A DNA stretch of 63,416 nt, the filler included, from Reclinomonas americana ATCC 50394 (taxonomy: Eukaryota), in NCBI GenBank assembly GCA_048213135.1. It is 9 parts of 9 records of this genome, joined end to end, with 100 filler letters (N's around TTAATTAATTAA, not from the genome) between each part and the next. Parts side by side here need not be neighbours in the genome. Positions count along the whole stretch, not along the records: positions 12,919 to 23,341 come from PS016045.1; 8 more parts are not named here. One strand, 5' to 3'. The translations under genes and the position numbers were made by a program. The notes under the pieces were generated by a model that worked only from the letters and a program-made list of their open reading frames with translations, did no database searches and was not told the origin of the DNA. How positions within the stretch are numbered: the first letter of the stretch is position 1; every line of letters starts with the position of its first letter. Below are positions 15,945-18,900 of the stretch, one piece after another.

Positions 15945-18900
15945 ATGAGCGCCGCAGCTGCTGTCGACGAGAGCGTGTGTCCAGTGTGTCGCGTGCTTCT
16001 GCCCACTGACGCACTCCCTGTGCACCTGGAAACGTGTCTCGAGTCGCTGCCAGAGGTGTGCAACGAATGAGACTCTTAATCATCGGGACAACTCACACTC
16101 ACACACACACACACATGCCCAGACACGACGTGTGAGTGCTGCAGCGCCCACCATAGGCTTCTGTGACAAATGTGCCACTCGTGGCGACATCTTCAACCTG
16201 TCGGCGAGTGCCACACACACAACACGAAGTCACTCTCTCCTTTGCACTCATTTGTCTCCGCGCGCAGAACTGCCTTCACATGCTGTGCAGCCCGTGCTTT
16301 GGTGAGATGGCCTACAACTGTGTGCGCTCAGGCAAGTACGAGGCGCGTTGTCCACTTGCCTCATGTCGGCGACCTATCGAGGCTGATGCGTTTCGCGATG
16401 GTCTCTCGCGACGAGATTTCGTCATGTATTCGGCCTCGCGCATCCGTGCTGAGCGAGTTGAGTGAGCGACTGGGAGAAACGCACTGGAGCTGTCTGATGG
16501 GATAGGGAATACTCAAGTGGATTTGCAGGGTCTTGGTGTGCCGGATGAGGCGCTGCGGGTGACTTGTCCGTCATGTCATGCGGCATTCCAGCGCGCGGCC
16601 TTGGCTCGCCGGTACGCTGGTGCGGGCGATATGAAGGCGGTGAGTGACAGTGATGAGTTGCCACCACCATCGCGGCCGTTGCCGTCGACGAGCATCATTG
16701 CGCGAGCGGAGCGGGGAGGGCGTGCCAAAACTGTGGGGTTGTCGTCGGTGAATCCACTCACTGGCAAGAAGCGCGAGGGCCCTGTGCCGTCTCGTGCACC
16801 TCCCTCACGACAGCCGTCTGCCACCTCTAGTCGCGGTCGTGGTGGTGGCAAGGTTGGTCGCGGTGGTGGATCCTCTTCCGCTGCATCCGCAGCAGCGGCT
16901 GCGGCATCACCAGTGGCGGTGGCGTCGGCGGAAGAGTTTTGTCGAGAGGAGCACCGGCTGCAGTGTCCGTCGTGCTCCACCTACTTTTGCGACGCCTGCC
17001 ACGCTCTTCCCTATCACGACGGATTCACGTGCGCGAGAGTTGCGCGGTTGCGTGCGCTAAAGTTGAAGTGTTTTTTAACTGACGCCTGTCGGTGGCAGTG
17101 GGAGATCAGGCGAAATGCTCGTCCGTGTCGCTTCTGCGGTGTTCTTCTCGACGAGACCAACACGTGCAAGGAGCCGCGACACAAAAATGCGTTGCTGCAA
17201 GTGGAGACGGCCCTGCGTCGACTGTTGGTGATGGAGCACGGCCATGGAGGTGTGGTTGCATCAGGCGCAGCCCTCCTTTTCGTGTACTCACCAACCTTCC
17301 CCGCTGGCAGACTGGGCGGAGATTGTCTCCATTCCTCCAGCCTTGCAGTATTGTTGCACGGAGGCGGCGTGTTTGGAGCGCCGCGAGTTGTCGTGTGATC
17401 GGACGCTGGAATGTGGCCATGCGTGTTGTGGTACACGCGATGAAGTCGAGTGCCTGCCGTGTCTGCAGTGTGCCGATGCCGATGGCAACAAGGTAATGGC
17501 GATGCTCGCATGCCTCGCCTGGTGTTCCTCCGCTGACGCCACAGAGCAGAGGGCCGAAGACGACTGCAACATTTGTCTGGCTGAGCCCCTGGGCGCAGCA
17601 CCGTGCTTCCGCAATGTGGCGTGCGGCCATGTTTTCCACTTTCAGGTGCTTCCGCTTTGCATACTCTCTTCCGGCTGCCATTTCTCACTCGCACTCTCTC
17701 TCTCTCTCTCGTGTGCGCAGTGTTTGCAGAAGCGTCTGGAGATGCGCCACACGACAGCACGCATCCATTTCAAGTACCTCGAGTGTCCGCTCTGCAACGC
17801 ACCGCTGCACCACATTGAGTTGGTGCGCCTCCTGCATCCCATCTACGACTTCAAGTCGCGCGTGGAGGTGAGTGCCCGCATTGAATTTCATTGGACTCGC
17901 TTTGCTCACCTCACTTGTCGATCGATGATGCAGACTCTCGCATTCCGTTCCATTGTGCACGAGGCCGGGCACGACCGAGAAGTGGCAGCCATGGTGGACG
18001 ACAAGCCTGCAGCCGAAGTCACTGAGTTGGCCATGCGCACGCTCTCGTTCTTCCAGTGTCATCGTTGTCGTGAACCATACTTTGGTGGCCGCGTCGTGTG
18101 TGGCGAGAATGCAGACTTTGATCCGAACCTCCTCGTGTTGCGTTCGCTGCATCACCATTGAGTATGCTCTTGAACCGTCGCACTTACCTCCAGGTGCAGG
18201 TGCCCGGCTTGTGTCGCGGCGATGCAGAATACGGGCTTGCGCTCCGGAGTCATGTGTGCCGTACACGGTGGTGACTATATGTTGCGTGAGAACACCACCA
18301 CCGTGCTGGTTATTGTGTTCCGCCCGACTGACCTTGTTTTCACAGATCGGTGCGGCCTGTGGCTCCCACCGTCGTCTCTTCTGTGCTCATTATCCGTTCT
18401 GCAGTGGAAGTGCCGATTCTGTTGCAACTTTGCTGTGTGGTTCTGCTTTGGGGTGAGAGCTGTCGTTGGTATCGCGGGTGGATGAAGAATTGTTTGCTGA
18501 CTTCTTTTTGCGCAACTTGCTCTCCCTTGCCAAGACGGTGAGTGACCTGTGTTAATTTACATCTATATATGCTGCACTCCCACCACTCACTTACTTGTGT
18601 GTGCTGGTGTGCAGACGGTTTGTTTCTGTGTTTCACTCGTGCTGTTGTGATGTTGCCACTCACCTCTTTCCCGATCGCCCCTCGCGTCCATTTGAACTAT
18701 GCAGCAGTGAGTCTCTCGCGCGCATCGCGGCTCCTTCAATCCTCACCCAGTACACTTACGTTCTTGTTGACCCCCATGCGCAGCATGTGCGACAAGTGTC
18801 ACTCGTCAAGCGCGTGGAGCAAGACGTCGTGGAAGCAGTGCACACCGGAAACGTGCAAGCTGAAAATGGCTCACCCGCCAAACGGTTCGTCACTCTTTCT

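Follow-up and report, generated by a model that had tools for sequence, protein, structure and literature searches.

The exon structure of a gene for what is, as judged from its sequence, a small ubiquitin ligase with a RING and a tandem-cysteine domain (RING-Cys-relay, MYCBP2-type) was analysed in a 63,416-nucleotide (nt) stretch of joined genome parts of Reclinomonas americana ATCC 50394 (assembly GCA_048213135.1), referred to here as the window. The window has the composition of an intron-dense eukaryotic genome with approximately 56% G+C. The gene lies on the + strand at about 15950-19207 (stop codon 19205-19207), and ligase activity of its product is predicted. Four candidate micro-exons of 4, 3, 3 and 2 nt would build part of its active-site region: ATCG (18346-18349), ACG (18535-18537), ACG (18615-18617) and CA (18705-18706). 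All four units together are probably real and would represent an extreme variant of the known ultra-short micro-exons. The run formed by the last three (3-3-2 run) is very likely to be genuine. The 4-nt exon is less certain than this run and is itself likely, and it appears fairly likely that all four units are constitutive in the mature mRNA. Comparison with the protein family supports these units as the sole canonical route to the near-invariant spacing and residues of the family.

A preliminary description of this DNA had presented the four units as tiny exons directly enclosed by AG and GT. Their letters and positions (AG/ATCG/GT, AG/ACG/GT, AG/ACG/GT and AG/CA/GT) were recovered exactly, the introns flanking the 3-3-2 run, described as four introns of 77-87 nt, measured 82, 77, 87 and 77 nt, and scripted joining of the exons by coordinates reproduced the proposed peptide including D-Y-I-S-W-K-C.

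Exon structure of the tandem-cysteine region

The 81-nt exon 18200-18280 ends with H-G-G-D-Y and the two bases AT. It is followed by a 65-nt intron (18281-18345) with the donor GTTGCG and a branch-like CTGAC 14 nt before CAG, after which micro-exon 1 would finish an Ile codon and add a Ser residue. This unit was assigned by the family spacing and by a profile-guided alignment. A 55-nt intron (18350-18404; donor GTGCGG, CTCAT 15 nt before CAG, no internal AG) leads into the 48-nt exon 18405-18452, which encodes W-K-C-R-F-C-C ... F-C-F-G, contains the Cys aligned to human C4572 and has a match in the PDB.

The 3-3-2 run follows the 48-nt exon. The first of its introns (18453-18534, 82 nt) has the donor GTGAGA and CTGAC 34 nt before AAG, the second (18538-18614, 77 nt) has the donor GTGAGT, CTCAC/CTTAC and 70 nt free of AG before CAG, the third (18618-18704, 87 nt) has the donor GTTTGT, CTCAC 42 nt before CAG and no internal AG over 85 nt, and the fourth (18707-18783, 77 nt) has the donor GTGAGT and CTTAC 25 nt before CAG. 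Micro-exons 2 and 3 each encode Thr, while micro-exon 4 supplies bases 1 and 2 of a His codon that is completed by the C at 18784. With this base begins the 101-nt exon 18784-18884, encoding (H)-M-C-D-K-C-H ... H-P-P-N-G. Micro-exons 2, 3 and 4 were each supported by path enumeration, shuffles, the family motif, a family hidden Markov model (HMM) and the profile-guided alignment. Four introns within eight coding bases would form, to our knowledge, the densest run of spliceosomal introns.

Relationship to the MYCBP2 family

A word-indexed search with an open reading frame (ORF) containing the RING yielded eight relatives, the top one being Capsaspora CAOG_00584 with 31% identity, and in a profile search 723 family proteins reached E ≤0.001. 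For comparison 125 family proteins were used, consisting of 117 new ones among the matches listed (120 of 723) and the eight from the word-indexed search. The motif K-C-x-x-C-C...C-x-...-[FM]-C-x-x-C-H was present in 122 of the 125 proteins; P0003, P0005 and P0007, which are truncated or frame-shifted models, failed. Exactly four residues follow C-x in 121 of the 122 motif-bearing proteins (GTTH in 102, GNTH in 13, GSTH in 3, and GTTR, GRTH and GKTH in 1 each), the exception being P0009 with ten residues. The distance from C-x-x-H to K-C is seven residues in 120 of the 122, and the two deviating cases seem to be artefacts, produced by the pattern match or by the gene models.

Aligned singly with the relatives, the window exons left exactly two columns open at one of the two sites and exactly three at the other. 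G-x-T-H between C-F and [FM]-C-x-x-C-H was obtained here only if the three micro-exons of the run were spliced in. The expectation that T-T-H, once spliced in, directly follows the C-F-G of the Cys aligned with C4572, corresponding to FCFGTTH in the family, was borne out by the alignment.

Homology of the tandem-cysteine domain to MYCBP2 was evident from a score of 123.2 bits for the product assembled by coordinates against a profile of 121 family segments. Among the 47 columns with at least 90% conservation in these segments, 38 are identical in the ligase gene and all Cys and His residues are kept, which argues against a pseudogene. The 48-nt exon matched the human MYCBP2 RING-Cys-relay structures 5o6c and 6t7f in a search of the PDB (E 0.0026, 21 residues), and its product is 75% identical to family members across 16 residues. 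The exon with M-C-D-K-C-H alone gave no match in the PDB, Pfam held no family for the tandem-cysteine domain, and an exhaustive HMMER search with the 103-residue read-through ORF returned a single irrelevant repetitive match. Upstream of the tandem-cysteine domain a RING-H2 finger is encoded by the exons 17547-17645 and 17721-17867, which align with RINGs of the family. The Pfam family zf-RING_11 matched these exons weakly (E 0.0036, 17.4 bits, under the cutoff of 27).

Human numbering was derived from P0184, a 263-residue human chain that was assumed to start at residue 4378. With this start, position 4520 is the Cys of G-G-E-A-R-C and 4572 the Cys of F-F-C-F-G, and the neighbouring residues F4573, F4578, H4583, F4586 and E4534 all fall on the correct letters. 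Cysteines aligned with human C4520 (upstream) and C4572 (downstream) are both present in the ligase product, C4572 being the residue that we take to be the downstream catalytic cysteine of human MYCBP2. Publications describe the C4520S variant as catalytically inactive (PMC12664034) and a two-cysteine relay of MYCBP2 (PMC9120709). The RING-Cys-relay module of MYCBP2/PHR (structures 5o6c and 6t7f; PMC9120709) resembles the protein described here in having a RING-H2 with a zinc-binding tandem-cysteine domain behind it, both aligned cysteines, C-x-x-C-H and, if the micro-exons are included, G-T-T-H. In contrast to MYCBP2/PHR, the Reclinomonas protein comprises a few hundred residues and is devoid of the long N-terminal PHR/RCC1 regions, like the proteins of Capsaspora and Andalucia.

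Chance expectation and independent recovery of the 3-3-2 run

All chains through 18453-18783 were enumerated, with a minimum of 40 nt for canonical GT-AG introns and a maximum of 12 nt for micro-exons and of four pieces per chain. A total of 60 canonical chains exist, 16 of which are in frame and 7 also stop-free. The products of the seven are H, T-H (twice), T-T-H and three longer ones beginning with T-V-N-G-F; T-T-H is the only stop-free product of three residues. In dinucleotide-preserving shuffles T-T-H was found in 7 of 20000 cases and the looser pattern [TNSR][TS][HR] in 119 of 20000. T-T-H from the 3-3-2 run thus exceeds chance expectation. Some open chain of 8 nt was available in 14582 of the 20000 shuffles (73%), and therefore a rescue of the frame alone means little.

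For recovery from the genomic sequence we used a custom protein-to-genome aligner in which codons may be split and exon size is unrestricted. The neighbouring MTO1/GidA gene served as control and gave a clean ten-intron model with zero micro-exons, in which seven introns of 57-74 nt were unambiguous. A position-specific matrix of 151 columns was built from the 121 family segments and aligned to the ligase gene with no coordinates supplied. With the intron penalty set to 4, 8 or 12 half-bits, precisely the four units lay on the best path, and an alternative path through 18453-18783 was never taken. Micro-exon CA was furthermore chosen in spliced alignments by two distant single homologs. In the family HMM the full four-unit model received 123.2 bits, compared to 110.7 bits for the T-V-N-G-F product. 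A loose scan for a micro-exon signature, as it might be applied to a genome, produced 28 hits on the + and 35 on the - strand, mostly noise; six of the + hits lie within 18346-18710.

Splice signals and origin of the introns

Twelve homology-confirmed introns of 54-75 nt (five of the ligase gene, seven of MTO1) served as a reference set, and the six candidate introns are 55-87 nt long. The donors of the confirmed introns vary (GTGAGT, GTTGCG twice, GTATGT, GTGTGT and others), with weak conservation past GT, and 11 of the 12 confirmed acceptors are CAG or AAG, one being GAG. Each micro-exon is enclosed by canonical GT...AG introns whose 3′ regions contain a branch-like motif and lack AG. In front of the six acceptors, 53, 53, 45, 70, 85 and 31 nt are free of AG. 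A branch-like CT[CGT]A[CT] 10-45 nt before AG is present in all six candidates and in 11 of the 12 confirmed introns, as compared to 18.5% of 3505 AGs on the + strand and 11.5% of 243 exonic AGs; the motif was defined post hoc from these introns, with 12 confirmed ones only, so the contrast is indicative and this counts against the strength of the argument.

The unusual donor hexamer GTTGCG occurs at 18137, 18281 and 22530 on the + strand, and those at 18137 and 22530 are homology-confirmed.

No further copies of the candidate introns were detected within the 63-kb window, and among 55 intron pairs the top local-alignment z-score was 3.15, belonging to a non-adjacent pair. An origin from an introner family or from recent tandem duplication was ruled out within the window by the lack of copies and of mutual similarity. 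The six introns look like mutually unrelated, separate and old gains. An RNA structure bridging the splice sites was considered as well, and none was found (z-score 0.06).

Alternative readings of the locus

Several results weigh against the presence of all four units. A close relative was not among the proteins found, the best being about 31% identical. Spliced alignments with single distant homologs disagreed on the route through the ligase gene, and a chance T-V-C-F-C reading was among their results. At penalties of at least 16 half-bits the profile alignment ended at F-C-F-G instead of paying for four introns, because the remaining domain is divergent. The equivalents of human E4534 and F4578, which we take to be active-site residues, are L and M here (exons 17934-18136 and 18784-18884), a difference from human MYCBP2 which hints that substrate chemistry or preference may differ from the human enzyme.

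The other points of this kind concern the 4-nt unit. The stretch 18281-18404 is a wholly open frame, and codon usage over 18279-18404 scored -0.089 per codon, between the exon mean of 0.40 (sd 0.23) and the intron mean of -0.46 (sd 0.29), in a small test whose table is slightly contaminated by one wrong-frame segment. The upstream AT limits the first residue of the unit to I or M. Because 1330 of 20000 shuffles (6.7%) offer such a unit and its first residue is forced, chance stays available as an explanation for it as long as the sequence alone is considered.

Unlikely, though the most probable of the alternatives, is a situation in which the 3-3-2 run is real and 18281-18404 is processed otherwise. 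The variant products would arise from a 13-nt exon (18346-18358, I-S-V-R-P), from one intron of 102 nt (18303-18404), which would add six residues, or from an unspliced stretch (40-residue in-frame insert). All of these routes are canonical, in frame and stop-free, the unspliced form fits the open frame with its intermediate codon score, and the cost in the family HMM is moderate: the 13-nt exon variant reached 117.0 bits, the single 102-nt intron 112.1 bits and the intron retention forms (region B) 107.3 and 102.2 bits, i.e. losses of 6.2, 11.1 and 16-21 bits. Against these routes stands the spacing of exactly seven residues at this site in nearly all relatives, as given above; among 16 in-frame, stop-free paths through 18281-18404 the 4-nt unit is the only one to provide it. 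Moreover, a branch-like motif precedes the acceptors at 18345 and 18404 by 14-15 nt, both of which also follow 53 nt free of AG, the 13-nt variant requires a 46-nt intron (confirmed minimum 54 nt), and the profile alignment retained the path through the 4-nt unit up to a penalty of 24 half-bits.

Partial inclusion, in which skipping of one or both ACG units or of the whole run would act as an on/off switch of the ligase, is less probable still. The frame survives the loss of one ACG unit or of both, and alternative 3-nt exons exist elsewhere: three consecutive micro-exons of 3, 18 and 22 bp are described for human RPS24 (PMC12207440). The sequence bears no sign of regulation, and a strong donor, GTGAGT, follows two of the three micro-exons of the run. 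The preliminary description had suggested that skipping of the 3-nt exons could tune activity. This suggestion found no support: 121 of 122 relatives keep four residues at this position, and models lacking either ACG (114.4 bits) or both (109.7 bits) score 8.8-13.5 bits below the full model. With this spacing the skipped products would probably be dead enzymes, and skipping is more likely to inactivate the enzyme than to tune it.

A decaying or non-functional copy, with 18453-18783 being one long intron or junk and T-T-H a coincidence, is very improbable. The ease with which shuffled sequence offers an open 8-nt chain would fit it, as would a draft assembly with linker-joined contigs. Nevertheless, T-T-H was rarely reached by chance, every internal acceptor comes with a separate branch-like motif and AG-free zone, an intron of 331 nt would far exceed the 54-75 nt of the confirmed introns, and the conserved Cys and His residues as well as all other junctions are intact.

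We give hardly any credence to an mRNA free of micro-exons, in which splicing takes out two ordinary introns (18281-18404 and 18453-18783), the 12 bases lost (4+8 nt) cancel and the 48-nt exon is read in the other frame: such a model is canonical, in frame, stop-free and the probable output of a gene finder, in agreement with the earlier expectation that annotation would likely miss the units, but it loses K-C-x-x-C-C ... F-C-F-G, which is 75% identical to relatives in the proper frame, scores 53.5 bits lower (69.7 versus 123.2) and needs introns of 124 and 331 nt in a gene whose others have 54-75 nt.

Introns at the motif in relatives

A metagenome scan provided 80 relative loci, and at 76 of them the whole motif lies in one frame; the spliced aligner was run on 16 of the 80, and the remainder was assessed by the one-frame pattern. 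L052 carries a variant of the motif, and L069 has an intron within C-C-S/V. In L037 (region 2365-2545) the Gly codon is interrupted by a 102-nt intron, at a position two bases upstream of the 18453 intron of the window, and L068 (region 1798-2010) has a 138-nt intron one base past the His codon. Four candidate introns in the G-T-T-H region are thus found in the window only, whereas L037 and L068 have single introns at nearby, different positions. These introns may reflect a hot spot of intron gain or intron sliding.

The T-T of L037 is also spelled ACG ACG. Furthermore, the public models of four of the first eight relatives (P0005, P0006, P0007 and P0009) break or shift frame in or near the motif; that of P0005 runs off past W-F-C-W, and that of P0009 carries six inserted residues. 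Other lineages may therefore have unrecognised introns at the motif as well.

Proposed splicing mechanism and comparison with known systems

If all four units are included, ATCG and its neighbours would give the seven-residue spacer before K-C, and ACG, ACG and CA would give G-T-T-H after the C-F of the downstream catalytic cysteine. Splice sites would be paired across each intron of 55-87 nt (intron definition). Adjoining introns would be excised sequentially, each excision embedding a unit of 2-4 nt in an exon of normal size, and the tiny exons themselves would never need to be recognised as units. Sequential removal is probable because exons of 2-4 nt cannot serve as units of recognition and two spliceosomes hardly fit on both sides of them. 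Intron-definition splicing is plausible at the ligase gene, where introns measure 54-87 nt. Sequential removal under intron definition was proposed for a 1-nt exon of Arabidopsis (PMC4674806).

In plants, coding exons of 1-15 nt are established and widely mis-annotated (PMC8831610). Among them are the 1-nt exons of APC11 and VPS55 and, in a gene for a peptidase M1, two neighbouring exons of 5 and 12 nt (Yu et al. 2022, PMC8831610; Guo and Liu 2015, PMC4674806). As described in these sources, the plant micro-exons are similar to the candidate units of the ligase gene in being constitutive coding exons of few bases, bounded by GT-AG introns. They likewise complete a conserved protein and escape annotation, and intron definition with sequential removal is the explanation given for them. 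They differ in occurring as singles or as the one 5+12 pair, whereas the ligase gene would contain 3, 3 and 2 nt consecutively plus a 4-nt unit within 30 codons of a protist gene, as deduced from sequence. In a limited search of open-access literature, none of the titles and abstracts listed described a run of three exons of ≤3 nt. Ultra-short micro-exons as such are known, and this arrangement would be a new extreme among them.

Ratchet points of Drosophila (recursive splicing with zero-length exons) and stwintrons of fungi leave no bases in the mRNA. The ligase gene, unlike these, would keep 2-4 coding bases per junction, with an own branch-like site for each segment. Juxtaposed AG/GT is a shared feature, and stepwise removal would be another (PMC6110457, PMC9024468).

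A much wider proposition, which appears doubtful at present, is that the spliceosome constitutively joins the array of 3, 3 and 2 nt and the 4-nt exon 48 nt upstream in a strictly intron-defined way and in obligatory order, and that such arrays are a wider unannotated feature of the lineage, arising at a hot spot of intron gain shared by the lineages of L037 and L068.

If RNA confirms the four units, no tandem micro-exon array described so far would be as extreme as this one, with three consecutive constitutive exons of no more than 3 bases encoding residues after a catalytic cysteine. Exon length would then be essentially irrelevant to an intron-defining spliceosome, and the gene would be a natural substrate for studies on the order of intron removal. 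The cancellation of 12 nt would furthermore mean that gene finders can emit a wrong protein in frame and that this enzyme family may be silently mis-annotated in intron-dense protists. Together with the nearby single introns in other lineages, the array would have a bearing on hot spots of intron gain.

Other exons of the ligase gene and further features of the window

The first half of the RING-H2 finger is encoded by the exon 17547-17645, as determined by spliced alignments with P0002, P0006 and others. The exon 17721-17867, likewise obtained by spliced alignments, covers the second half of the RING and the region of the linker helix, and is flanked by introns of 75 nt (17646-17720) and 66 nt (17868-17933). 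The following exon (17934-18136) contains the Cys aligned to the upstream catalytic Cys (human C4520), based on spliced and family alignment. The 63-nt intron 18137-18199 (donor GTTGCG) has a homology-supported junction, D-P-N-L-L/V-C-P-A-C. Towards the 3′ end a 75-nt intron (18885-18959, donor GTTCGT) precedes the last exon (18960-19207), which encodes the zinc knuckle C-L-G-C-A-A-C and an acidic tail and ends with the stop codon. All features of the ligase gene lie on the + strand.

A neighbouring gene at 19294-19600 on the - strand, which we take to be tryptophanyl-tRNA synthetase-like, contains one ordinary intron of 67 nt (19444-19510); as read by eye, its junction is contiguous and a micro-exon is absent. 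The top relatives of the MTO1 product are approximately 50% identical and belong to oomycetes and Balamuthia. The G+C content of the window does not agree with that of chlorarachniophyte genomes (PMC12730881).

Eight identical spacers (44 N, TTAATTAATTAA, 44 N) are located at 12819-12918, 23342-23441, 31325-31424, 37062-37161, 43903-44002, 46222-46321, 59708-59807 and 62062-62161, and look like six-frame-stop linkers between contigs of a draft assembly. Longer runs of N extend over 20538-20846 and 29825-30816. Spacers and N runs mostly adjoin low-complexity repeats, and none lies in the micro-exon region.

Three tandem paralogues of Na+/H+ (cation/proton) exchangers, with several short introns each, are found on the + strand at 2949-7400, 8311-11705 and 12870-15823. 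Amid an intron-dense neighbourhood, an uninterrupted ORF of 798 codons with about 14 WD40 repeats is present at 53789-56182 on the + strand.

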